Source of the DNA: a virus
Lineage: Duplodnaviria > Heunggongvirae > Uroviricota > Caudoviricetes
Virus record (IMG/VR): IMGVR_UViG_2872147552_000001
Direction: 5' to 3' (one strand)
DNA: 64,000 nt
The translations under genes and the position numbers were made by a program. This document shows positions 6,336-48,477 of this stretch, piece by piece. Numbering within the stretch: position 1 is the first letter of the stretch; each line of letters opens with the position of its first letter. The notes under the pieces are model-generated. The model was not told the origin of the DNA, did no database searches, and saw nothing but the letters and a program-made list of their open reading frames with translations.

Positions 6336-6378
6336 GTGCTTTCCTTTGTTTTTTAAACAAATTGTTTTCTAGTATTAG

Positions 6379-7128
6379 TTAATTAGATAGGGGATCAATA
6401 AACCGCCGTGCTTCTTCCAGTTCTTCTGGAAAGTGGGCGGAAATAAGGCGCTCTGGAACGATTTCCATTAGCCAGATAGCGGAGAAAATTGCGCGTATGC
6501 GCTTGCTGCGGGGGATGGTGCGTAAACGCTCCAGAATCCACTCAAAATAGCTTTCCTGAATCGGGTTGAACTGCATGTCCCCCATATGCTTAAAGCTAAC
6601 CAGAGAGTCATCCAGACGGGTTGTTGCGCGTCTGGCTAATTTCTCTTCGAATATCTCAATCAGTTCTTGCTGCCATAAATGCTGTGGGCGCGGCAGCTTG
6701 TCCCACAGCCGTCGTGCAGCTGCGGAAAGAACGGTGGAGATAAAGTAGTCGTATGAGCAGCAATAGCGATCCGCAAACTGGCGCGCTTTCCATAGCGACG
6801 TTTTATTGGCAGTCGACAACTCCTGATAAGGCAGGCGTTTTAACCCGGTGGTGAACGGAGCTGTTTCAAAGTGTTCGCGACCGTGCGTCAGCATGATATT
6901 TGAGTACTGACGTTTGTATGCCTCCGTAAAAAGACAGGTGGCCATGAGAGGATGCATGTCGCGGTAATCAAACCACTTCGTCTCGAAGAGTTCAGCCTCG
7001 TCTTTACAGCGCGACAAACCAATGTTTTCAGCGACCCACTTGTCCATAACAGCGGTATTCCACTCTGTCATGAAGTCGTACTGGTCGTTGTCGATGGTAT
7101 CGAAAAAGATCTGGCTCATGTGGCTCAC
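6379..7128 (-). CDS. hypothetical protein, first gene of replication operon
   Basis: 249-aa ORF with AGGTGAG RBS; operator motif immediately upstream. Confidence 0.55.
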   Translation of the reverse strand: MSHMSQIFFDTIDNDQYDFMTEWNTAVMDKWVAENIGLSRCKDEAELFETKWFDYRDMHPLMATCLFTEAYKRQYSNIMLTHGREHFETAPFTTGLKRLPYQELSTANKTSLWKARQFADRYCCSYDYFISTVLSAAARRLWDKLPRPQHLWQQELIEIFEEKLARRATTRLDDSLVSFKHMGDMQFNPIQESYFEWILERLRTIPRSKRIRAIFSAIWLMEIVPERLISAHFPEELEEARRFIDPLSN

Positions 7129-7233
7129 CTGGTAGGTAGTTACTTACTTATCACGATGAGCGGATGATAGCGACTGGTGGCAGTTTTTGGAAGTGGAAAC
7201 GGAAGGGAGTTGTTCTGGTGGTGTCTTTTAAAA

Positions 7234-7291
7234 GACCTGCTTCCGTATATATATTTAATAAGTTACTTATTATTTATATACAGAAACAGGT
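7234..7291. repeat. 58-bp AT-rich imperfect palindrome, copy 1 (second copy at 40272-40329)
   Basis: gacctgcttccgtatatatatttaataagttacttattatttatatacagaaacaggtc; about 95% identical to copy 2. Confidence 0.7.
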
Positions 7292-7491
7292 CAAGAAACC
7301 AACCCAACCTAGTTTTTAGTCTCATGGTATGCAACCTTAAGATCTACTTTAAAACAGCTGCACGCCAGACGGTTGCAACATTGTTAAGTGTAACAAATTA
7401 TTGTAGATTACTCAGGCACAGAATAGCGTCTACAACTTAAGAAACGTCCAGAAATAAACAATGTTCCAATCACGTAGAAAGGGAATTAAGA

Positions 7492-8169
7492 ATGAAGGCG
7501 AATAAGTCAGCGGCACTTTTAGTTTTATTATTAGCCGGTTGCGCGCAACAAAGTAACCCACAACAAAATGCCACTGTAAAACCAATCCTAACCCAAGAAA
7601 TATTGCCTTCCTCTAACGTAGAGTCAAAGGCGAAAATGGGTGACCTTGTCGTTTATAACACGTTTGTGTCCACGTTAAAAACCGACATGGTCACTCTTGG
7701 TAACGCTTCTGGTTCGATGTCTGAGATTAAAGCGGGCAACTACTGCCACGTTGGTGGTGGGGTCTACCGGAACTTTGAAGACTCAAAAGCTGTGGGCCTG
7801 AAGGCCATTACAGGGCAGGTAGTGAGCCACACTGATAACGTCAAGTATGACAAGGTCAAAAACACTATATCTCCTCCAAACACCACGACGTTCGACGCCT
7901 CCGAAATATCCATAAAATTCGCACAAAATGTCCCCTGCCATGTAGAGAAAAAGATTGTTCAGTCTATTTCTTATAATGGTAAAAGCGGCGAAGAACTTAA
8001 ATTTATTTATTCCGAAAGCTACCCATATTTAGATGAAACTAAGACTGAGTTTTCAGTGCCTCTTTCCGATGCAAAAACCAAAGTCGAATATAAAAACCTG
8101 GCATTCAGGGTTATTGAAATGGAGGGTACTACAATCCGCTACTATGTATTACCATCTGGCAATAAATAA
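7492..8169 (+). CDS. lipoprotein (signal peptide + lipobox LAGC)
   Basis: N-terminus MKANKSAALLVLLLAGCAQQ; GGAA RBS; sits between replication and partition modules. Confidence 0.7.
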   Translation: MKANKSAALLVLLLAGCAQQSNPQQNATVKPILTQEILPSSNVESKAKMGDLVVYNTFVSTLKTDMVTLGNASGSMSEIKAGNYCHVGGGVYRNFEDSKAVGLKAITGQVVSHTDNVKYDKVKNTISPPNTTTFDASEISIKFAQNVPCHVEKKIVQSISYNGKSGEELKFIYSESYPYLDETKTEFSVPLSDAKTKVEYKNLAFRVIEMEGTTIRYYVLPSGNK

Positions 8170-8184
8170 ACTGCTTTAAAATAT

Positions 8185-8202
8185 AGGCGCCATCTGGCGC
8201 CT
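8185..8202. terminator. bidirectional hairpin terminator
   Basis: aggcgccatctggcgcct stem-loop between convergent lipoprotein and parG-like genes, T-rich flank. Confidence 0.6.
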
Positions 8203-8207
8203 TATTC

Positions 8208-8567
8208 TTAACTCTTCTTCATTAACTCGCGTTTAATTTCATCGGTACGCATCGTGACATCGGCAGCAGTGATCGCCTCGTTCAGCTTCACGATGTCCTC
8301 GATTTCCTGCGGTGTCTTCTCCGCAAGATGGAAAATAGCAGCACGAATCACATCAGAGCGGGTGAATTTCTCAAAGCGAGGGATGAACTTCATCATCTCC
8401 AGCAGTTCGAAGTATTCGTCTTCCAGTGACATTGTGCGGCTTTTAATTTTCTCTTTGCCACGAGTCGGGCGTCCCTGTGGTCTGACTGGTTGGCGCAAAG
8501 GAGTTGTGTTCTTAGCCGGTGCATCAGGCTCTTTGCGCTTTGCTAGGTCACCCATTTTCATGGACAT
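8208..8567 (-). CDS. small partition protein (ParG/RHH-like centromere-binding partner of ParA)
   Basis: 119-aa basic N-terminus, immediately downstream of and overlapping parA stop. Confidence 0.55.
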   Translation of the reverse strand: MSMKMGDLAKRKEPDAPAKNTTPLRQPVRPQGRPTRGKEKIKSRTMSLEDEYFELLEMMKFIPRFEKFTRSDVIRAAIFHLAEKTPQEIEDIVKLNEAITAADVTMRTDEIKRELMKKS

Positions 8568-9235
8568 TATTCTTTTTCCTCCAGACTCAACAGATAATCT
8601 ACAAATTCTTCAAACTCGGCTTCCGCCTTTTTGTCGCGCTCGCTACCGGTCATTTCAAAGATAGAACGACCAGACTCTTCCGCATCATCATAGACGTTGC
8701 GGTTATATAGATTGACTGGCGCAGACTCGATGCCAAACGTCTCAACAATCTCTTTAGCCGCCAGAATGCGAGACACTTGTGATGGCAAAGCCGGACACTG
8801 GTTCATGACCGCGCGGACCTTCACTTTATCGTTTACATTACGAACATTGTCGATAATAGGATCGATATCACGCAGAGATTTCAAATCACGACGCTTAGGA
8901 CGAAGCGGGATAATGATAACGTCGGCCATCAGCATCGCTTGTCGCTGAATTTCGGAGTCAAAGCCACCAGCATCTACCACGACAAACTCAGCTCTACCCT
9001 GAAGCGATTTTAGGTGCTTAATGATGTCATCCTGAACGTATGCAAAAGGAATCAGCTCAAGGTCTTCGTTCTGTCGACGGTCTTCACACCAGCTCGTTGT
9101 CGTGCGCTGAATATCTATATCGGTAATATAAACCTTCTTCTTCTTTTTGACTTTCAGGCAAACGGCAATTTGCTGGGCAACGGTGGATTTGCCAGGCCCG
9201 CCCTTTGTGCCGCCAACCACAAAGATCTTGGTCAT
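8567..9235 (-). CDS. parA: ParA-family partition ATPase (small type Ib)
   Basis: Deviant Walker A GGTKGGPGKST, Walker B VVVDAGG; 222 aa. Confidence 0.85.
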   Translation of the reverse strand: MTKIFVVGGTKGGPGKSTVAQQIAVCLKVKKKKKVYITDIDIQRTTTSWCEDRRQNEDLELIPFAYVQDDIIKHLKSLQGRAEFVVVDAGGFDSEIQRQAMLMADVIIIPLRPKRRDLKSLRDIDPIIDNVRNVNDKVKVRAVMNQCPALPSQVSRILAAKEIVETFGIESAPVNLYNRNVYDDAEESGRSIFEMTGSERDKKAEAEFEEFVDYLLSLEEKE

Positions 9236-17877: not shown

Positions 17878-20800
17878 TCACAGACGGCCAATTCTTACTC
17901 GTAGGACGTTGTTATCGTCATAAACGTCAATCCGCTGACCATTTATAACCAATCGCCCATTGCCGCCGCTATTACCGTTGATCTCAAGCGTTCCATTTTT
18001 GCCGAACCGCCATCCAGATCTACCGCTAACAAAATTGGTAGATTGCAGATCGCCTACTTTTGCATTGGTGATTGTGCCATCCTTGATATACGCTCCATTC
18101 ATATAGGCGATACTGTTTTCGATAACAAATGGCGTTGTGATCTTCCCGTTAACAGAGTTGACCAAACCAAACCTGTCCGCCTGAACCAAAAACTGAGATA
18201 GCCCAGTGGTGTCAATACCAAGCGCAATACCGGCAACATACTTCTGCCCTCCGCTCGTTGAAGTCTCCATTTTCAACGTCCACGCGGTTGATACTTTTTT
18301 GTTGGTATCAGCAATAGCTGTTGCCTGCTGTTGAATTGTCGCGGTATTTCCATCCACCTCTGCTTTCAGAGTATCGATTCGCCCACTCAGAGCATTATCT
18401 GCCTGCGTTCTCGCTGTCGTTTCAGTTGTTACCGCCGCGGAAATGTTGGCTGCCGTTTGAGACTCTAAGTTTGTGATTTGAGTCGCCAATGCAGCATCTT
18501 GCTCTGTACGCGTTTTCGTTTCGGTTGCTACAGCCGCTTTAATATCCTCTTTGTATTGAGAGGTCAGCTTGGTGATCTGAGACGACAACGCCGAGTCAGC
18601 ATCAGTTCGAGCCTGCGTTTCAACTGCAACGGCCGCACTAATATCTTTCGCTGTCTGTGCTTTTAAATTTGAAACCTCTTTTGTTAAAGCGGTATCACCA
18701 TCTGCACGAGCCGTTGTTTCTCTGGCAAGAGACGCCTCGAGATCATTAGCTTTTGCTGTAAGAGACGTAATCTGGGTAGACAATGCACTATCGGCATCAG
18801 TCCTTGCTTTTGTCTCTACAGCAACCGCTGCGGCAATATCAGTTCCGGTTTGTGCTCGCAGGCTGTTAATTTCTCGTGAGAGCGCCTGGTCAGCACTTGC
18901 TCTGGCCTCCTGCTCCTGAGTGATGGCAGCGGATATATCACCGTCAACCTTTGACTGAAGCTGGTTTATTTGTTTGGCTAACGCAGAGTCCCCGCTTGCT
19001 CGGGCCTCCTGCTCACTACGTATTGCAGCAGAAATATCATCATCAACCTTTGCCTGAAGTTGGGTGATCTGGCTTGCCAGAGCCGAATCTTCCGTTGCTC
19101 GGGCTTCTTGCTCTTCCTTAATAGCTGCGACGATATCGTTGCTTACTTTCGACTCAAGCTGAGTGATCTGTGTCGTCAGAGCTTCATCGGCAGATGTACG
19201 AGCCTCCTGCTCTGTACTAATCGCCGCGCTGATATCTCCTTCAAACTTAGATTGCAGCTGAGTGACACGCTTTGCTAACGCTTCATCGCCATCTGCACGC
19301 GCGGTGGACTCTTCCAGAATACTGGCCTTAATGTCTTCGCCAATTTCTACGCGAATTTCTTCAACCTTCGTAGCCATTGCAGACATATCATCAGCAAAGG
19401 TTTTCTGTGTTGTTGCGATCTTCGCGTTATTGACCATCTGCTTGTGCTGGTCTTCATCTTGACGAAGAGCCAGGTCAATATTTGTTTTGGCTAACGCCTC
19501 AATGTTCGTAGTCAGTTCTGCACTGGCACGATCGACCTCTGCAACCGTCTTTTTCATTTCTTCAACGGCAGCGGAGCTTTCCTCTACCGTTGACTGCAAC
19601 ACTTCCAGTTGTTTAGCGTTTGCAGCATCGCCTTCAACACGAGCCTCGCTTTCCTTAGCAATAAGAGCCGCCGCTTCATCTCTTGCAGCCTTTATTGCCT
19701 CGACTGTATTAGCGAGAGCTTTATCGTGTTCAGATACGGTGTTTTCGATTTCAACAATTGCAGCATCAGTAGCATCAATTTTTTCAAACGCTTCATTGAC
19801 CTTGTCGATCGTTGCCGAAACCTCACCTTTAAGCTCGGTTTGTGCGTTCTCCAAAGCATCGCTACGCTCGTTGAATTTTATTTCAAAATCCGCGAGGTTA
19901 TCGCTGAACTGCTTATCTAATTCAGCTATATCTTCCTTAACGTCGTTTACCGCCCCCTCCAAAGATTCGACGCTCTGGTTGATATGCTCATTTAACTCGT
20001 CAACTGCTTCTTGAGAGGCTTTGCTGTTGATGTCCTCAAGCAGAGCCTGACCAAGCTCGGAAGATGTAATTTTGCCAGTCAGGAACGACAGTACATCGCG
20101 AGTTGTCGCCTCTGTACCCAAGTTTGAGTTCGGAGGACTTAACATACCTCGCTTGTTCGATGCTCGAACCCAGTAATACCACGTTTCGCTATCCCCAAGA
20201 CCAGCATGTGTAAAGGTGGTGCTTGCAGACTCTGCGATCAGTTTCGCCGTATCCAGATTGTTGGTCTGGGATGCGTAAACATTAATGTGATCAAGGTCTA
20301 CCGAATCTGGATTAACCCAATTCAGTATCACATTACGATAGTCTCCAACGGCCGTTAATGACGTTGGTGCATCCGGCGGTGTCATTGTGCCCAGCACCTG
20401 ATAAACGGTACTGATAATTTCTGTTTTTTTACCGTTGAATGAAACCGCATACAGTTGGAAGTCGTAGCGTCCATTCTCCGCGACATTAACGATTTCGTAT
20501 TGCTCTTCGGTTACACGCGCCGATTGCCAGTTCGATACATTGTTTTCATCAGAACGTCGCCAACTGATCCAATACTCTGGAGATTTCCCTTCCCATGTTG
20601 CAGTCAGTTTTACTGACAGGTTGCCCGGGCTTGAGAGGTAAGTTCCTTCAGTGATTTGCAAATTAGACGGCTTGGAGTAAGTCGGGTCCAATACCGTCGT
20701 ATTCTGCGGAATCAGCGTTGCACCATTGTCGATTGCCTCATATTTAGACGGATTGTTCTCAACAGCGGTGATGTCAAAGCTACCCGGCGTTTCCCCCTGC

Positions 20801-22611
20801 GCGATGTTAACGATGCGAACGCGCATAGGTTCGAGGTCTGGTTCTGTAATAGTCCAGACGCCGTTCAAAACAGGCGTTTCAGCCGAAGACAGGGCTTTTG
20901 AAAACGTAACTTTTGTTATATTTTCGCCAGTTTCAAGAACATCGCGTTCAACGATTTTGCCTTCCTGATTCAGTATTCGAATAAAGCAGCCGCCTTTGGC
21001 TAACGACACAGGCGCATCGAGTGTGACGCTGTTTTTGGTAAACGCCACAATTCGACCTGAGTTACGTTTGCCTGCGCGATATTTGTTCTGAATCAGAACG
21101 GTTTCACCAGGCATCAGAAATGACGCGTCTAAGCCGGCAGTAAATGTAATTACATCCGACTCCATTCTGGCGGTATATAAAAGCCACAAACCAACTCGGT
21201 GAGCCTGCCCTCGGCTTGTACAGCCAAATGCTACGACTTCTGTTTTACGCTCACCATAACGGCGCATTGCGTCCTGATCTTCGACGTACTCGATGTTTTG
21301 CTTATAACCGTCCTCCTTGTTGTTATAGGTTACGAGCGCAACGGATGGGCGATCTTTACGCGCAGAACCTTTATAGGTAAACAATCCATCTTTGACGTTA
21401 GAGTTGGTAAACATCATTACCGGATCTGATGGGCTATCCTGCATGATGTTAACCATCCCACCAGCCCAAAACACCATGCCGCGGAATGCACCGGCAATAT
21501 CCTGAATTAGTCGGTATGCGTCCTGTCGACTGGTGATCTGCGTATTGATTGCAAAGCGTTTCTCTTTGCCACCAAAGCCATCATCGACTTCTTCGTCACA
21601 ATATCGACCAATCTGGTACAACTGGCCAAGGTCAATCATAGATTCCGACACATACTGACCAAGGCCATATCGAGCATTGGTAAGCAAATCAAAGAGAATC
21701 CACGCGGGGTTTGAAGAAGACAACAGCTTAAAAGTGCCATCCCATACACCATCATAAGTGTTGCTGGCCTCGTTGTAGTTTGACGGCACGCGAATTTTTA
21801 ATCCACGTACCAAATACGAACGAGATGGCATGGTGCTACCAAACTGCTCAGAATTAACCTTCAGACCCACCAGCACAGAGTTTGGGTAGTTCATCGGTGT
21901 ATCTACAATCTCACCTATTGAGTCCACCCATGTATCGTTATAGAGATACTGGCTGCTGTTATCATCGGTAATACGGACTACACGAACCTTGTACGCGCGT
22001 CCAGGCTTAGGCAGCTTCAGCTCATAGCTACGGTAATAAACACCTGTCTTCTTTGCTGTTAGCTTAATGCCAACGCTTTTTTCACCTTCTGCGACCACAT
22101 CTACAAATGTTGAGTCGCCATTTGCTATCTGGAACTTGTACTCAACGGTTGTACCGTTCGTGTCACCAGTTTTTTTATCTATGCTTCGCAAAGAAGGAAA
22201 CTTCATGATGACACGAACCCGATCAGCTTCATCGTTATCGATTGAAACCGTTACATAATGTGTTTTTTTTAACTGGATATTGACGGATTTAGGCGTTTCA
22301 ACGAAATCAAAGCCAGACATTGGAGTCTGGTCTTGCGAACCGTCGCGAAAATCCCATGTGATTCCGCTGAAGTTGGAGGAACCGTCTTCATTTACAATCG
22401 GCAGATCGTCGACAAAAATAGATCTTGCGCCATTTACCAAGCCGCCAATTACACCTTCCCCAAGAAGATCGAGGATAGCGGCCATTGCACGAGAATTTAC
22501 GGTATCGTCGGCTTCAACCGGTGTACGGCTAGAGCTTTTGCTGCTTTTTTTACCACCCGCACCTGCAATAAACAGCGGTAACTTTTTCTTCTTGAACTGT
22601 TCCATGTTCAA
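17878..22611 (-). CDS. tail tip / host specificity protein (lambda J-like) with C-terminal tandem coiled-coil repeats
   Basis: 1577 aa; lambda-J-like N-terminus; about 12 tandem ~25-aa repeats (DISAAI..EQEAR..DSALA.QI.QLQ.KV). Confidence 0.8.
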   Translation of the reverse strand: MNMEQFKKKKLPLFIAGAGGKKSSKSSSRTPVEADDTVNSRAMAAILDLLGEGVIGGLVNGARSIFVDDLPIVNEDGSSNFSGITWDFRDGSQDQTPMSGFDFVETPKSVNIQLKKTHYVTVSIDNDEADRVRVIMKFPSLRSIDKKTGDTNGTTVEYKFQIANGDSTFVDVVAEGEKSVGIKLTAKKTGVYYRSYELKLPKPGRAYKVRVVRITDDNSSQYLYNDTWVDSIGEIVDTPMNYPNSVLVGLKVNSEQFGSTMPSRSYLVRGLKIRVPSNYNEASNTYDGVWDGTFKLLSSSNPAWILFDLLTNARYGLGQYVSESMIDLGQLYQIGRYCDEEVDDGFGGKEKRFAINTQITSRQDAYRLIQDIAGAFRGMVFWAGGMVNIMQDSPSDPVMMFTNSNVKDGLFTYKGSARKDRPSVALVTYNNKEDGYKQNIEYVEDQDAMRRYGERKTEVVAFGCTSRGQAHRVGLWLLYTARMESDVITFTAGLDASFLMPGETVLIQNKYRAGKRNSGRIVAFTKNSVTLDAPVSLAKGGCFIRILNQEGKIVERDVLETGENITKVTFSKALSSAETPVLNGVWTITEPDLEPMRVRIVNIAQGETPGSFDITAVENNPSKYEAIDNGATLIPQNTTVLDPTYSKPSNLQITEGTYLSSPGNLSVKLTATWEGKSPEYWISWRRSDENNVSNWQSARVTEEQYEIVNVAENGRYDFQLYAVSFNGKKTEIISTVYQVLGTMTPPDAPTSLTAVGDYRNVILNWVNPDSVDLDHINVYASQTNNLDTAKLIAESASTTFTHAGLGDSETWYYWVRASNKRGMLSPPNSNLGTEATTRDVLSFLTGKITSSELGQALLEDINSKASQEAVDELNEHINQSVESLEGAVNDVKEDIAELDKQFSDNLADFEIKFNERSDALENAQTELKGEVSATIDKVNEAFEKIDATDAAIVEIENTVSEHDKALANTVEAIKAARDEAAALIAKESEARVEGDAANAKQLEVLQSTVEESSAAVEEMKKTVAEVDRASAELTTNIEALAKTNIDLALRQDEDQHKQMVNNAKIATTQKTFADDMSAMATKVEEIRVEIGEDIKASILEESTARADGDEALAKRVTQLQSKFEGDISAAISTEQEARTSADEALTTQITQLESKVSNDIVAAIKEEQEARATEDSALASQITQLQAKVDDDISAAIRSEQEARASGDSALAKQINQLQSKVDGDISAAITQEQEARASADQALSREINSLRAQTGTDIAAAVAVETKARTDADSALSTQITSLTAKANDLEASLARETTARADGDTALTKEVSNLKAQTAKDISAAVAVETQARTDADSALSSQITKLTSQYKEDIKAAVATETKTRTEQDAALATQITNLESQTAANISAAVTTETTARTQADNALSGRIDTLKAEVDGNTATIQQQATAIADTNKKVSTAWTLKMETSTSGGQKYVAGIALGIDTTGLSQFLVQADRFGLVNSVNGKITTPFVIENSIAYMNGAYIKDGTITNAKVGDLQSTNFVSGRSGWRFGKNGTLEINGNSGGNGRLVINGQRIDVYDDNNVLRVRIGRL

Positions 22612-38266: not shown

Positions 38267-39523
38267 CTATCGAGAACCACCAAGAATAACACGGTTTTTG
38301 ACTGGATACCTACGATGTACTGGATAGCCCAATGCGTCTGCACTATGCTCAATGCCACCTGTCTTATCCATATCTCGTGTTCCAGGCTTGTAGATGACTT
38401 TTTCCAGTGAATCAATCAAATGCTTGCACTTCGGATCGATATACAGCCGGATATCTCCAGATGCGGTCATCAGCATTCGGTTAACAGCATTAACACGATC
38501 CGCAATTGGCGGGTGCTTTTTCGAATAATCGACACGTAAGAATCCCTTCTCTTTGAATATGTCGACGTCAGACTCCCCGCGAGCATGTTGGCGATAAGCA
38601 CCTGCCGGATCTGGAAATACCGTTATCTGTGATTTCCAGCGCCAGAAGCGTCTCTCAAGCTCATCACAAACCTCTGCCGTGTTAGAGGAAAAGAGCACCA
38701 ATTCATCAATTGCCCATAGCTCACCATTTGGCTGAGGTTGCAAAATTACTGAAGACATCGGGTCAATGTTGAAGTCCTGCCCTACCCATATAGGCAACCG
38801 AGGGTTGAACTGAAGCGGTTTTACATGCACGTTACGATCGAACGGGTAGTAAACGCGCCCGGACATGTTCTCAAAGCTCGCCAGGTACTCCTGAGCGAAC
38901 GATTTCGGGTCCATATCGTTCTTAGCAGCTTCAATTTCCGCCGTAGGTACAAACGGAGAATCGGCAGTTACAAACTGCCAGCTCTTCCACTGTCCCTTTC
39001 TTTGCAGCTCTACGTTCTGGCCTATAGTCCACAGTTTGTGAAATTCCGAGAAGCCTTTTGGCGTACCAATGATCAGTGCACCGCCGCGTGTCGATGAAAG
39101 AGTAGGTCGTAACACCTTGTACCAGGTGTCAGCCTTCATATCCTGAAATTCATCAAGCACTACAAAATGCAACGCTACGCCGCGCAGAGTGTCAGGCTTA
39201 TCAGCACCTTTGAGGGCGATCTCCGAACCGTTCTTCAACACGATTGTCATCGTGGTGTCGTTCTTTTTCCTAACCCACTTACGAGGCAGAACTTCCTGTA
39301 GATCGTCCCACAAAATCTGGCGAGCCATCTGGTAAGTAGGAGCGACATACCAGACCCTTTGCTTTTTTTCCTTTGCCGCCGCACGAATAATAGTGGAGAT
39401 CGACAACCGGGATTTTCCCCAGCGTCGACCAGCACAAACAACTTTAAATCGATGCGGAGACTGGAAGACTTTCATCTGTCCAGAATGCAGTTGCACAAGA
39501 CTGAGCGAGGACGGGATTGCCAT
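38267..39523 (-). CDS. terminase large subunit
   Basis: Walker A CAGRRWGKS, Walker B VVLDEF, C-terminal nuclease-like domain; overlaps TerS stop. Confidence 0.9.
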   Translation of the reverse strand: MAIPSSLSLVQLHSGQMKVFQSPHRFKVVCAGRRWGKSRLSISTIIRAAAKEKKQRVWYVAPTYQMARQILWDDLQEVLPRKWVRKKNDTTMTIVLKNGSEIALKGADKPDTLRGVALHFVVLDEFQDMKADTWYKVLRPTLSSTRGGALIIGTPKGFSEFHKLWTIGQNVELQRKGQWKSWQFVTADSPFVPTAEIEAAKNDMDPKSFAQEYLASFENMSGRVYYPFDRNVHVKPLQFNPRLPIWVGQDFNIDPMSSVILQPQPNGELWAIDELVLFSSNTAEVCDELERRFWRWKSQITVFPDPAGAYRQHARGESDVDIFKEKGFLRVDYSKKHPPIADRVNAVNRMLMTASGDIRLYIDPKCKHLIDSLEKVIYKPGTRDMDKTGGIEHSADALGYPVHRRYPVKNRVILGGSR

Positions 39524-40155
39524 TATTCGTCCTCCCCTTTACTTCCATCATCTGTCGCATCAAATTCGCTTAGAGCTTCTTCTTCTAACGTCTCAAGCAA
39601 TTCGTCATCGATGATTTCAGGCTCGTCGTCTTCCTGACGTAATTTCGCCACCTGGGAAGGCGTAAGCTCACCAAATACCAGGTTCGGAATTTCTTCCTCG
39701 TCATTTTCCGCATGATCCATGCCCAATGCTTTGGACGAAACTTCAAAGCATTTTGCAAGGGTATTACTGGCTCTCTGTAAGCTCTTGAGAGAATCCTCAA
39801 TCGCCCCTAAAGGCTTACCCTCACGTTTGGCCGTAGTGACTTCGACCATCACCATCTGCCCCAACGCATACGCCCAGCCGTCATAACGTGTACGACGTTC
39901 TTCTATCTTTTCCGCACGGGCTTTAGCGCGAAGCTCTGCGTCAGATTTAAGAGACTCACGAACCATCTTCCCAACAGAGTCCGCGCCTTTCTCTAATCCT
40001 CGCTTTTTGAAATGTCTGGAGAGTGTTTCACGACGAATGCCGTACTCTTCCTCCAGCTTTGAGAGTGTATATTCGCCTGACGTCCATTTGGCTTCAGCTT
40101 CGGCCCACTCCGCTGGTGTCAGGCGAGTTTTTACCTCGTCTTTTTCGACCGTCAT
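39523..40155 (-). CDS. terminase small subunit
   Basis: 210 aa, N-terminal HTH-like region, acidic C-terminus; directly upstream of TerL. Confidence 0.7.
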   Translation of the reverse strand: MTVEKDEVKTRLTPAEWAEAEAKWTSGEYTLSKLEEEYGIRRETLSRHFKKRGLEKGADSVGKMVRESLKSDAELRAKARAEKIEERRTRYDGWAYALGQMVMVEVTTAKREGKPLGAIEDSLKSLQRASNTLAKCFEVSSKALGMDHAENDEEEIPNLVFGELTPSQVAKLRQEDDEPEIIDDELLETLEEEALSEFDATDDGSKGEDE

Positions 40156-40271
40156 AGATCCCTCTAAAACACACAGAGCGCGTCCATGCGCTCTAAAACA
40201 ACTTGTTTACTGAATCTGCTAACCAACTTGTTTTCTGGGGTGTTTAATTAGGTCTGGGCATGTCTTATTAA

Positions 40272-40329
40272 GCCTGCTTCCGTATATATTTAATAAGTTA
40301 CTTATTATTTATATATACAGAAGCAGGTC
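40272..40329. repeat. 58-bp AT-rich imperfect palindrome, copy 2, flanked by GGTCTGGG / CCCAGACC inverted repeat
   Basis: gcctgcttccgtatatatttaataagttacttattatttatatatacagaagcaggtc; upstream of terminase operon; two GAAAACAA.TTGTTTTC-type sites lie at about 40190-40240. Confidence 0.7.
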
Positions 40330-40351
40330 TTTAAATAAGCTCCCAGACCGG

Positions 40352-40618
40352 TTACATCACCAGTAACTTCGCTTTGGCTCGACCTAAAGTGGTTAACCCA
40401 AGAGTTCGGCGGTGATAGCGATTGTCACTGCGTTGGCGCGTATGCCCTTTCTCCACCAGCCCCTTTTTTATCAGAGCGCGAATTGAGAACTGGATACTTT
40501 GCTTGGTTGTCTTGTACGGCAAAACTTCAAGCAATTCGTCCAGATCAAGTAAATGACCTCGCTCATAACCGAGGTTGAGCGTTTTGATGATGTCCTTTTG
40601 TTTATCGGTTAACGTCAT
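40352..40618 (-). CDS. small winged-helix DNA-binding protein (putative regulator)
   Basis: 88 aa with LEVLPYKTTKQSIQFSIRALIKKGLVEK helix-turn-helix-like segment. Confidence 0.45.
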   Translation of the reverse strand: MTLTDKQKDIIKTLNLGYERGHLLDLDELLEVLPYKTTKQSIQFSIRALIKKGLVEKGHTRQRSDNRYHRRTLGLTTLGRAKAKLLVM

Positions 40619-41527: not shown

Positions 41528-41778
41528 CTACGCTCGATATTGGCATTGATGAAGTCCAGGCGAAGCGATTCCATCGCCCCAACCATGACGTATGGACGCC
41601 CACCGTTATGCCAGCAATCCAGCACACTGCCGTCGTTGTTGATCATCAGCAGTGCCAGGCTCTGGCTTTTGCCTTCTCTGGCGTACTGGAGTGCTTCTTC
41701 CAGCAGGCGGATGACTTCAACGTTGTTGTTGTCAGCCTCTTTCGATGGCTTCAGCTCTACGATCTTCAAATCAGGCAT
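41524..41778 (-). CDS. hypothetical small protein
   Basis: 84-aa ORF translationally coupled between ABC ATPase and GNAT genes. Confidence 0.45.
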   Translation of the reverse strand: MPDLKIVELKPSKEADNNNVEVIRLLEEALQYAREGKSQSLALLMINNDGSVLDCWHNGGRPYVMVGAMESLRLDFINANIERR

Positions 41779-42409
41779 ATTCCACCTTCACGCGTTCTTT
41801 GTAGTGCTTGGTGATCTGCATATCCGGGCGCAGCGCGTTCTTCAGGTCTTCGTGAGTCGTCGCCACCATTACCGTCGCACCAACCTTTCGAGCGGCACGC
41901 TGGAGGTTAGATGCCACAACCTGAGCGGTTACACGGTCTAGAACAGCCCCGAACTCGTCAGCAGCCCACACTTTAGCGCCTGACTCAATCAGTTTGGCAA
42001 TCTTGAGACGATATTTCTGGCCGTCTGACATTTCAGAAGGCTTGCGAACAAACAGATATGCATCGTTCAGACCAGCCATAGATAACAACCCAAGCGCATC
42101 ACTGGTCGTTTTGCCCAACTGATCGATGACGTTAACCTCATTATCGAAGGTAAAATCATCGATGGAGGCTACAGACAGCCCTTCATCCTTCATCTGTCGT
42201 TGCAACTCGCGCAGCACAACGGATTTGCCGGATCCGGATTGGCCGGTGATGTACACCACATCGCCCTGCTTCACTTCCAGCTCCAGATTGTCGTAAAGCG
42301 TCCACTCTTTTTCGTCCAGACCAAGCCCGAACGACTCAGCGATTTCCAACGTGCGCGTGGTTTTATTTACGCGTGTCTGAAACGATACGTTGATGATGTA
42401 TTTGCTCAT
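41771..42409 (-). CDS. compact ABC-type ATPase (nucleotide-binding domain only)
   Basis: Walker A GQSGSGKS, ABC signature SDGQKYRL, Walker B VWAADEF, H-loop TTHE; 212 aa, no membrane domain. Confidence 0.75.
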   Translation of the reverse strand: MSKYIINVSFQTRVNKTTRTLEIAESFGLGLDEKEWTLYDNLELEVKQGDVVYITGQSGSGKSVVLRELQRQMKDEGLSVASIDDFTFDNEVNVIDQLGKTTSDALGLLSMAGLNDAYLFVRKPSEMSDGQKYRLKIAKLIESGAKVWAADEFGAVLDRVTAQVVASNLQRAARKVGATVMVATTHEDLKNALRPDMQITKHYKERVKVEYA

Positions 42410-43074
42410 GCAGCCATCTCCCCGGAAGAGATCTTCTCCGCATATGCCACAAATGCGTCTACCCCGCTTTCTCCTGTCATTTCTTCCATGTGGGCAAGCA
42501 AATCACCAACAACAATGGCAGAGCCAGCAGGGAGCGTTTTAAAGCCCAATACGTCGACAACACGTACTTCTTCCGCTGCAACTTCACGACTGATCTCGGT
42601 GTGTTCATCCTTCTGTCGTTTAGTTTCTTCGCCAAGATCGATAACTAGCGAGTCGGTGTCCATTTCTTCTGTCATACTGCCAACGAGAACATTCAACTCA
42701 CGCTCTTCAAAGCCGAAAACCTCGATATCGTCCAGAACAAGCGACTCAAGCTCTTTCTGTAGCTTAATTGCATCGTAATCAATGCTGGCTAGTCGGTTAT
42801 CTTCAAGGCGCTTCGCACGAACCTCGTCATCACTCAGATCATCGCGAACAATAACCGGCACGCGCTCAAGTCCAGCAAAAATTGCAGCCTCACGGCGGCC
42901 GTGGCCAGTAATAATTACGTCGTTCTTATCGACCGTAATTGGCTGGTCAAATCCTCGCTTTTTAATGGCTGCGGCCAGATCTCGGATCTGCTGTTCATCA
43001 TGCTTTTTGGCATTCATCTCATAGGGAATAAGATCTGCCGGGTCGCGATATACGATTTCAAACTTTTTGGTCAT
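42406..43074 (-). CDS. ParB/Srx-like nuclease-domain protein 2
   Basis: LIPYEMNAKKH...ITVDKNDVIITGHGRREAAIFAGLERVPVIV ParB N-domain signature; start placed at Met12 overlapping upstream stop (track to 43107). Confidence 0.65.
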   Translation of the reverse strand: MTKKFEIVYRDPADLIPYEMNAKKHDEQQIRDLAAAIKKRGFDQPITVDKNDVIITGHGRREAAIFAGLERVPVIVRDDLSDDEVRAKRLEDNRLASIDYDAIKLQKELESLVLDDIEVFGFEERELNVLVGSMTEEMDTDSLVIDLGEETKRQKDEHTEISREVAAEEVRVVDVLGFKTLPAGSAIVVGDLLAHMEEMTGESGVDAFVAYAEKISSGEMAA

Positions 43075-43772
43075 TACATACGCTCCTTGTAGTAGTCGAC
43101 CAGCCACACCAGAGCCTCACCAGCGTTCTCCATTTCATTACCGGTGTTAATAGCCTGCTCTTTGATGATGTTTTTTATGGTTTCTGCAACACGATCTGAC
43201 GCATCGAAAGTTACTTTGAAGCGCATGGTCTGATGTTCCGCCCCCACACGTTCGGTTTTCTCTCGTTTGTCGGTATCGACAGGCTCATCACTACCACGAG
43301 ACAACGCCTCCAGTGCTTCAAGGTCGATTGCCGCCTCTTTTGCTAAAACCATCGAGATTTCGTCGTCATACGGGGCGATTTCAGACAGTTGATAGTCAAG
43401 TTCTGACTGAATTTCTTCAATGAAGCGTTGCAATGCGATTTGGTCGTCTTCACCGTATCGCTCGTTGTCCACCAGTGACATCTGTTTAGCTACGACATCG
43501 CTAATTTTGCCCACAGAAAGCACCGGAACCGTTGAAATTCCTTGCTCAATAGCAGCACGCCAGCGATGTTCGCCGCCGAGGATTTCAAAAAATCCATCTT
43601 CAAGTTCACGAGCCAAAATTGGCTTAAAAAAGCCCAATTTTTCGATAGAACCTTTCAGTTTTTCAAAATTCTGCGCACCAACCGAATTGGTGTTCCAGGT
43701 ATTCGGGCGAAGGTTGGCAACATCAACCTGCAAAATCGTGATTTTTACATCCATTTTATTGCTACAATCCAC
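43074..43772 (-). CDS. ParB/Srx-like nuclease-domain protein 1
   Basis: LRPNTWNTN...ILGGEHRWRAAIEQGISTVPVLSV ParB N-domain signature; 232 aa; first gene after the divergent promoter. Confidence 0.65.
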   Translation of the reverse strand: MDCSNKMDVKITILQVDVANLRPNTWNTNSVGAQNFEKLKGSIEKLGFFKPILARELEDGFFEILGGEHRWRAAIEQGISTVPVLSVGKISDVVAKQMSLVDNERYGEDDQIALQRFIEEIQSELDYQLSEIAPYDDEISMVLAKEAAIDLEALEALSRGSDEPVDTDKREKTERVGAEHQTMRFKVTFDASDRVAETIKNIIKEQAINTGNEMENAGEALVWLVDYYKERM

Positions 43773-48447: not shown

Positions 48448-48453
48448 AATCGA

Positions 48454-48477
48454 GCGCCCATAGTGGGCGCTTTTTTC
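48454..48477 (+). terminator. rho-independent terminator
   Basis: gcgcccatagtgggcgc hairpin + TTTTTT. Confidence 0.7.

Follow-up and report, generated by a model that had tools for sequence, protein, structure and literature searches.

The window, the whole 64-kb stretch of DNA analysed here, is part of an Escherichia coli phage-plasmid of the SSU5/pHCM2 type, and it is most closely related to Escherichia phage CMS-2020a and Cyrano (96-97% identity). The majority of its genes lie on the minus strand. Two of its intergenic regions carry nearly identical, A+T-rich dyad elements, designated copy A and copy B. Copy A (7234-7292, GACCTGCTTCCG...CAGAAACAGGTC) stands upstream of a replication operon, the first gene of which encodes a 249-amino-acid (aa) homologue of SSU5_038 (6379-7128, minus strand) and opens the helicase/primase block. 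Copy B (40272-40329, GCCTGCTTCCG...CAGAAGCAGGTC) lies between an 88-aa gene that ends just upstream of it (40352-40618, minus strand) and the first gene downstream, terS (39523-40155, minus strand), which encodes the small terminase/DNA-binding protein. An earlier note on this DNA had reported a duplicated element of about 58 bp upstream of the replication and terminase operons; both copies were recovered to within 1 nt, and both placements are correct because the genes in question run on the minus strand. Direct alignment bears out the duplication, with a single substitution and two TA-dinucleotide indels separating the copies and a 33-nt centre that is 100% identical between 7248-7280 and 40283-40315. 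An 18-mer core, TTAATAAGTTACTTATTA, has five matches in the window at three or fewer mismatches, against 0.04 expected from shuffles; four of the five are copies A and B, each read on both strands.

The core of the element consists of inverted, GC-rich arms of 14 nt (CCTGCTTCYGTATA ... TATACRGAAGCAGG) flanking a centre of nearly pure A+T. Elements of the SSU5 type have a centre of 25-29 nt and a total length of 52-57 nt, which varies by TA slippage; across lineages the sequence and length of the centre are free, with a range of 25-105 nt. In copy A, the left arm CCTGCTTCCGTATA (7236-7249, plus strand) has no mismatches, and the right arm, CCTGTTTCTGTATA on the minus strand (7277-7290), carries a C>T change that produces a U.G pair in minus-strand RNA. 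The centre between them (7250-7276) ties with that of copy B as the least stable duplex of the window, and the hairpin is followed directly, on the gene strand, by the T-rich tract TCTTTTAAAA (7226-7233, minus strand). The corresponding arms of copy B lie at 40273-40286 (plus strand) and 40314-40327 (minus strand). An outer inverted repeat, GGTCTGGGAG ... CTCCCAGACC, of 8-10 bp, is found 12-27 nt beyond the arms at all sites of the family described below, and its downstream member is retained even without its upstream partner. Around copy B this repeat comprises GGTCTGGG (40251-40258, plus strand), in which pairs covary, and CCCAGACC (40342-40349, plus strand), which on the gene strand starts about 6 nt past the stop codon of the 88-aa gene. 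The earlier note had seen this inverted repeat, but it also had copy B enclosed by two AAACAAnTTGTTT-type sites, both of which (40196-40208 and 40221-40233) are on the terS side only.

The element is not confined to this genome. BLAST searches place it in SSU5 and in relatives from E. coli and Klebsiella, with several copies per genome, and a pattern scan of IMG/VR returned at least 120 loci. Mapping of their flanks onto SSU5 resolves all matches, among those listed, to just three positions: site 1, upstream of terS, represented by copy B; site 2, upstream of SSU5_038/helicase/primase, represented by copy A; and site 3, in the gap that separates a Dam-like methylase from SSU5_089. The position predicted from synteny for a third copy is about 6 kb beyond the end of the window. 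A second retrieval relied on flanking genes and proteins and did not require the arms. It found the element in 78 of 80 site-2 loci (the other two contigs end within it), in almost all site-1 loci and in most site-3 loci. The comparison with related phages proposed in the earlier note thus yields the same two positions, with a third syntenic copy in addition. Among 5426 complete E. coli genomes, 259 (about 5%) carry the element, and all 404 placements are on plasmids, with none on chromosomes. No description of it was found in searchable full texts. The copies therefore constitute a dyad family with three members per genome, at fixed syntenic intergenic sites that mark the heads of three gene blocks.

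Within the SSU5-type clade the arms are near-invariant, even where a neighbouring protein is only 64% identical. More distant lineages (Moellerella, Morganella and Xenorhabdus-like) carry other arm sequences, with the two sides of each element matching: CCTGCTTCY, CCTAGCTCC, CCTTGCTCC, CCGTGYTCC and ACCGCGCTTCC. The Moellerella plasmid pW1-b, the sole genome read whole for arm matching across all three sites, carries CCTAGCTCCCATA arms at each of them, around centres of 53-105 nt. Elsewhere the arms are CCTTGCTCCCATA in L367 (site 3 only), CCGTGYTCCSATA in Morganella (at site 3, and at site 2 in the right arm) and ACCGCGCTTCC in L136 (site 1 only). Beside the arms and in the outer stem, pairs covary between GC and AU at alignment columns 39/101, 20/119 and 21/118, and one C-G > U.G > U-A path is visible, ending in L303. 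The matching arms of deep lineages and the covarying pairs argue that complementarity, not a fixed sequence, has been kept over long distances, and as read from these alignments the matched lineage-specific arms indicate compensatory, concerted evolution. Copies within a genome also change together. The core that is identical in copies A and B is not that of their orthologues in Cyrano and SSU5, and site 1 of Moellerella has a hybrid arm, with a 30-nt right half that differs from the right half of site 3 at one base. Such within-genome identity is read here as the probable outcome of gene conversion between copies, and a shared trans-acting factor would account for it as well.

The family includes natural losses and replacements. 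At site 2 of Morganella, the left arm is lost and the right half kept, accompanied by a new hairpin plus TTTCTTTC. In L358-365, a canonical GC-rich terminator comes after a site-3 palindrome that has degenerated. One lineage (L217/L220/L222) has a divergent gene upstream of terS and no site-1 element, and retains site 2. The replacement in these three loci (positions 1-700) spans the whole terS-upstream region, including the dyad, which has given way to the divergent gene and another promoter region; the AAATAAATTGTTTTC motif and a leader hairpin are still present there. Copies of the Morganellaceae type (22.59-22.71, 51.25-51.37 and 95.84-95.92 kb of pW1-b, NZ_CP093257.1, and 1340-1395 of L374) have a conserved box, ACACTGCGGAA, downstream of the right arm. 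This box is sometimes doubled, with an inverted partner upstream, and it replaces the CTCCCAGACC box of the SSU5 type.

Both window copies are strongly structured. Folded as DNA, their cores give z-scores of -5.6 to -8.9 relative to shuffled controls. Extended RNA folds, again compared with shuffles, give -6.1 on the gene strand and -2.1 on the opposite strand for copy A, and -9.6 and -8.9 on the two strands for copy B. With a loop of 3 nt and some 10-14 bp of arm stem, the core hairpin has the stable, GC-rich base characteristic of an intrinsic terminator; its total stem length is about 25 bp, and at copy B the outer repeat extends the pairing to about 45 bp. As duplexes, the same sequences are exceptionally weak. 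Copies A and B rank first and second for lowest stability among stretches of 30-40 bp in the 64-kb window; sites 3, 2 and 1 rank first, second and seventh in SSU5 (103 kb), and site 1 of Moellerella ranks first. The copies hence possess the unstable A+T stretch that is one hallmark of a replication origin. The suggestion in the earlier note that the element is a DNA-unwinding or cruciform site stays live because the two copies are the least stable duplexes and fold as hairpins. Neither isolated half-sites nor further copies of the outer motif exceed chance in the window, and no Rfam family reaches its gathering score anywhere in it.

Three features that go beyond the earlier note, namely a U-tract at two of the three sites, an outer inverted repeat at all of them and lineage-specific compensatory arms, make a hairpin insulator or terminator the leading explanation. 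The reading favoured here, tentatively, is that the elements may be hairpin insulators or terminators ahead of repressed lytic operons. In a circular genome with nearly all genes apparently pointing one way, each element would sit just upstream of the promoter region of one block: packaging, structure and lysis; replication; or the genes that follow the Dam-like methylase. RNA polymerase arriving from upstream, whether from plasmid maintenance, cargo or other genes, would transcribe the element, and the transcript would fold into a long hairpin with a GC-rich base, the 14-bp arm pair lying under an A-U stem. At copy A, the U-rich tract directly after the hairpin would promote transcript release, such that the repressor-controlled lytic promoter downstream would not be bypassed. 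Copy B, without a U-tract, would rely on its extra outer stem, for about 45 bp of total pairing, and on a separate leader terminator before terS. Transcripts would thus enter the element and stop there, and insulation would be the function under selection.

Several observations are consistent with this proposal. In the T-richest run of 8 nt that follows the right arm on the gene strand, the mean is 5.5 T at site 2 and 5.5 at site 3; the tract of copy A, TCTTTTAA, has 5 T in 8. Behind a co-directional upstream gene, the structure starts 5-12 nt past the stop codon. Copy B follows the co-directional 88-aa gene in this way; the gene upstream of copy A (7492-8169) is divergent. Among mismatches, transitions that leave a G.U pair in the sense RNA are more numerous than those of the A.C type (98 versus 52 cells, representing 25 versus 17 distinct variants), and CCTGTTTC is common. 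The natural variants described above (L217/L220/L222, L358-365 and site 2 of Morganella) also fit an insulator. The operons downstream appear to need tight silencing, because promoter regions lie downstream of the elements and AAACAAnTTGTTT operators are present at terS. The resemblance to intrinsic terminators that serve as insulators lies in the GC-rich-based hairpin, the U-tract at sites 2 and 3, the position a few nucleotides past the stop codon of a co-directional upstream gene and the location just upstream of a promoter region. The element differs from them in its stem of about 25 bp with a nearly pure A-U upper part, in the concerted behaviour of three copies, in the absence of a U-tract at copy B and in Moellerella-type copies, and in its retention behind divergent genes. 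As for the shared control element envisaged in the earlier note, the part that stands is that the element is conserved and that relatives share it, at the head of the replication operon as well as that of the packaging operon. An indispensable role in control of the terminase operon is not supported, given that the terS copy is missing in one viable lineage (L217/L220/L222).

Several observations weigh against the hairpin insulator. Copy B, and site 1 generally, lack a U-tract (mean 3.1 T in 8), as do Moellerella-type sites 1 and 3, where centres of 53-105 nt fold poorly and site 1 pairs over only 8+3 bp. In about 48 of 76 site-2 loci, the window among them, the nearest upstream gene is divergent, leaving no obvious transcript to stop, and the element is never lost there. 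Ordinary short GC-rich terminators are used elsewhere, for example at 8185-8202 and 48453-48477, which makes the three sites a special class. The centre is about 90% A+T in every lineage despite its free sequence, and this retention, together with the lowest duplex stability, looks like a constraint at the level of DNA. Some arm changes are uncompensated (CTGCATC, CTGCGTC and GAAAGCAG), and whole elements are flipped in L054/L228, in L262 and at site 3 of SSU5. The G.U excess is modest and weak, and it may reflect a bias towards C>T mutation in the non-template strand. Across 67 variants, no consistent preference for the sense or the antisense strand was found in folding energy, and a consensus terminator scan flagged neither window copy.

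Much of this evidence would be accommodated by the main rival, a DNA-level dyad, which is rated somewhat less likely than the insulator. Here, some phage-plasmid protein would bind the inverted arms, and the A+T centre would be an easily melted or bent spacer. Such sites could be several lytic replication origins, dispersed centromere-like sites for a partition or ParB-like protein, or roadblocks and silencers at the heads of lytic operons. Arms that are alike at all three pW1-b sites and different between lineages are what co-evolution with a single DNA-binding specificity would produce. The proposal also fits a centre that stays extremely A+T-rich while its sequence and length (25-105 nt) are free, and the rank of the copies as least stable duplexes in the window, SSU5 and Moellerella. 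Retention of site 2 even behind divergent genes, survival of the Morganella right half without its left arm and the tolerance of flips point the same way. The genomic setting is suggestive as well, with site 2 between a parA/ribbon-helix-helix (RHH)-like pair and helicase/primase, and site 1 at the end of a ParB_N-ParB_N-ABC-ATPase operon. A search among neighbouring genes, however, gave no candidate binding protein beyond weak RHH and winged helix-turn-helix (wHTH) hints, and no isolated half-sites occur elsewhere in the window. Arm spacings do not differ by whole helical turns, which would be hard for a single bridging protein to accommodate, and one arm may carry uncompensated changes. GC skew in SSU5 and in the Moellerella plasmid tracks gene orientation and does not inflect at the sites, and the U-tracts of sites 2 and 3 would have to be coincidental. 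Type Ib partition systems normally have arrays of short repeats upstream of parA, which counts against the centromere version, although no search for such arrays was made here.

Two groups of known systems bear on these DNA-level proposals. The oriS and oriL of herpes simplex virus and the oriL and oriR of Bacillus phage SPP1 have initiator-type inverted sites around an A+T spacer. The present element shares the inverted sites and the A+T spacer, the intergenic location and the presence of several copies tens of kilobases apart, but its arms can change on one side, and the likeness to an origin is drawn from sequence. The phage-plasmid N15 reportedly has short, contiguous palindromic centromere sites bound by SopB, in work attributed to Ravin and Lane and to Grigoriev and Lobocka. 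That system is likewise a phage-plasmid whose few palindromes are dispersed through the phage genes, including one close to the partition operon; here, 25-105 nt separate the two arms, and ParA is paired with a small RHH-like protein for partition. In its more specific form, the three dyads would be sites of a trans-acting protein that has co-evolved with the arms, acting on DNA as multiple lytic origins or as N15-like anchoring or centromere sites, with the A+T centre melted or bent. This version is rather doubtful.

An RNA hairpin could also serve in processing or stabilisation, with cleavage of the type performed by ribonuclease III (RNase III) separating the gene blocks of polycistronic transcripts and leaving a protective 3' hairpin. 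Stems of about 25 bp in the core, or about 45 bp when the outer repeat of copy B is counted, would suit such a role, in that the stems of SSU5-type elements exceed the roughly 20 bp of double-stranded RNA expected of such a site. The presence of several homologous intergenic hairpins in a single genome is also in keeping with it, as is the sense-strand G.U excess, and the proposal fits copy B because no U-tract is needed. The intercistronic RNase III sites of phage T7, credited to Dunn and Studier, reportedly share a characteristic internal loop and are fixed in orientation. They too are related intergenic hairpins between co-directional genes of one phage genome, whereas the elements here are near-symmetric, are sometimes flipped and are known from their sequence. 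Divergent upstream genes at site 2, pairing over only 8+3 bp at Moellerella site 1 and the lack of an Rfam match leave RNA processing unlikely.

A fragile or selfish palindromic repeat, functioning mainly as a recombination joint for module and cargo exchange and for ectopic repair, is a still weaker proposal and must be considered quite improbable. Many different cargo insertions have their breakpoint at the left edge of site 2, and the two sides of an element often differ sharply in identity to SSU5 (97% versus 83% in one example). Flips occur as well, and the core shared by copies A and B and the hybrid arm of Moellerella are signs of gene conversion. Yet among the matches listed (n at least 120), and with both flanks mappable, no locus joined the flanks of two sites, and the recombination hotspot proposed in the earlier note, taken as exchange between copies, is accordingly not supported. 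The element occupies exactly three fixed syntenic sites, with no copy on a chromosome or at a new position, its arms stay complementary across deep lineages, and intergenic regions are the usual joints of mosaic genomes in any case. Small palindromic repeats such as ERIC and the Correia and miniature inverted-repeat transposable element (MITE)-like families are comparable in being imperfect palindromes of about 100 bp that are possibly transcribed. They differ from the present element, which shows no mobility, three fixed sites, no chromosomal copies and no target-site duplication; a MITE or other mobile palindromic repeat was rejected in view of the fixed syntenic sites and the absence of chromosomal copies.

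Very unlikely, too, is a promoter cassette, in which the A+T centre would hold one or two outward promoters and the arms would be transcript starts or flanking operators. Conserved sequence just inside the arms (TATAAATACT-ATGGGAG in Moellerella, L367 and L369; TAAATATATAC-GGAAG in the SSU5 type) is in its favour, as is the distance of only 37-50 nt from right arm to start codon at Moellerella sites 1 and 3, a gap in which a further promoter would hardly fit. The genes flanking site 2 are often divergent, and a consensus scan matched TTTAAA-17-TATATT reading into copy A. No -35/-10 pair recurs at a fixed distance across variants, however, and TA slippage freely alters the spacing. Separate sigma70-like promoters with operators lie downstream of both window copies, promoter-like matches in the region are no more frequent than in shuffles, and family annotations include no phage RNA polymerase or sigma factor.

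A packaging signal, pac or cos, recognised by the small terminase encoded beside copy B is highly improbable: copy B is directly upstream of terS, and the SSU5 GenBank record opens inside the element, but there are three equivalent copies per genome, the terS copy is missing in one lineage (L217/L220/L222), and contigs also break in site 2, such that record ends look like assembly breaks at a repeat. Ends inside the element occur at site 1 of SSU5 (NC_018843.1; L005 3263-3299 and L003 1-18) and, at site 2, as the contig ends of L236 and L241. Record ends as physical termini were rejected as assembly artefacts, because PhiR41_1 was opened at a gene and contigs also break in site 2. A site for site-specific recombination or telomere resolution (lox, dif or telRL) was discarded on the grounds that no joins between copies occur among the listed loci with both flanks mappable and that the arms are 25-105 nt apart, not 6-8 nt; no recombinase appears in the SSU5 annotation. 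Resemblances to attC, lox, dif, telRL, integration host factor (IHF) sites and T7 or T4 promoters were dropped on inspection by eye, the defining features being absent.

The genes and signals around the two copies are as follows. The 249-aa protein downstream of copy A has a confident all-alpha model (predicted local distance difference test score, pLDDT, 86.8), and a structure search with it gave no informative fold match. The predicted sigma70-type promoter of the replication operon, TTCCAA-17-TATCAT (7164-7192, minus strand), lies 40-70 nt downstream of copy A, a layout repeated in SSU5, L132, Moellerella and Morganella; a consensus scan did not flag it. On the other side of copy A is a divergent cargo gene of 225 aa (7492-8169, plus strand). 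The surrounding interval (7292-8210), with the orthologous left flank of site 2 (L224-L303), is a cargo hot spot, and 28 classes of left flank abut the arm. Beyond it, at 8208-9235 on the minus strand, the gene for ParA (222 aa) overlaps with the 119-aa gene that comes after it, and next to the latter is a bidirectional GC-rich terminator (8185-8202). The 119-aa protein is annotated elsewhere as a RelE/ParE toxin; its weak RHH-type match here makes a partition adaptor the more likely assignment.

On the terS side of copy B, two AAACAAnTTGTTT operator-type palindromes (40196-40233, minus strand) occupy the terS promoter region; they belong to a separate motif family and are not part of the dyad. 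The AAACAAnTTGTTT palindrome occurs 14 times in the window against 0.43 expected, with 13-nt cores at 6355, 9271, 40196, 40221, 49568, 50053, 50803, 51706, 52191, 53385, 54825, 54876, 58814 and 63087. On the gene strand, most copies lie just downstream of a GATAAT-like -10 element and 15-35 nt before a start codon, including those of helicase, parA and terS, and the motif is probably the operator of a repressor that controls at least ten promoters. Mycobacteriophage stoperators and the start-associated and extended repeats of Cluster K phages are motifs of 13-17 bp present in tens of copies. Like the dyads, these are repeated motifs in short intergenic gaps of temperate phages, connected with gene starts and prophage silencing, but the dyad has three copies of 55-105 bp, and AAACAAnTTGTTT is the closer analogue. 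Directly before the terS ribosome-binding site (40165-40195, minus strand) is a terminator-like leader hairpin, AGAGCGC-ATGGAC-GCGCTCT followed by GTGTGTTTT. Its stem compensates between lineages (GAGCGC/GCGCTC, GAGCAC/GTGCTC, CGGCGC/GCGCCG and GGTGCA/TGCACC), which suggests attenuation or antitermination control of the late operon.

Upstream of copy B, the 88-aa gene has weak wHTH-type matches below the cut-off. An operon of two proteins with ParB N-terminal domains and an ABC-type ATPase (41771-43772, minus strand) ends at copy B and is conserved in Moellerella, Xenorhabdus and other relatives. Comparison of the neighbouring proteins with Pfam, PHROGs, NCBIfam and the PDB identified only ParA, ParB_N, terminase and ABC-ATPase domains, in addition to the weak RHH and wHTH hints. 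Elsewhere in the window, four tandem 99-nt repeats (18865-19260), 62-72% identical to the first copy, lie within a 1577-aa open reading frame (17878-22611, minus strand) and presumably encode a repeated domain of a tail protein.

Phage-plasmids of the SSU5/pHCM2 type are common in Enterobacterales and carry resistance and other cargo genes. How about 100 kb of lytic genes is silenced during plasmid life is essentially unstudied, and the three-site element offers a concrete handle on the problem. In practical terms, the repeat breaks assemblies and record coordinates, and it provides a simple diagnostic marker for the family. If the elements bind a protein as dyads, they would point to an unknown origin, centromere or silencing system; a trans-acting protein co-evolved with the arms would imply a genome-organising system in which three fixed sites split the circle into three functional arcs. 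If the hairpin insulator is correct, it would explain how cargo expressed beside lytic operons is tolerated, and the element would be a ready-made, strong bidirectional insulator part.

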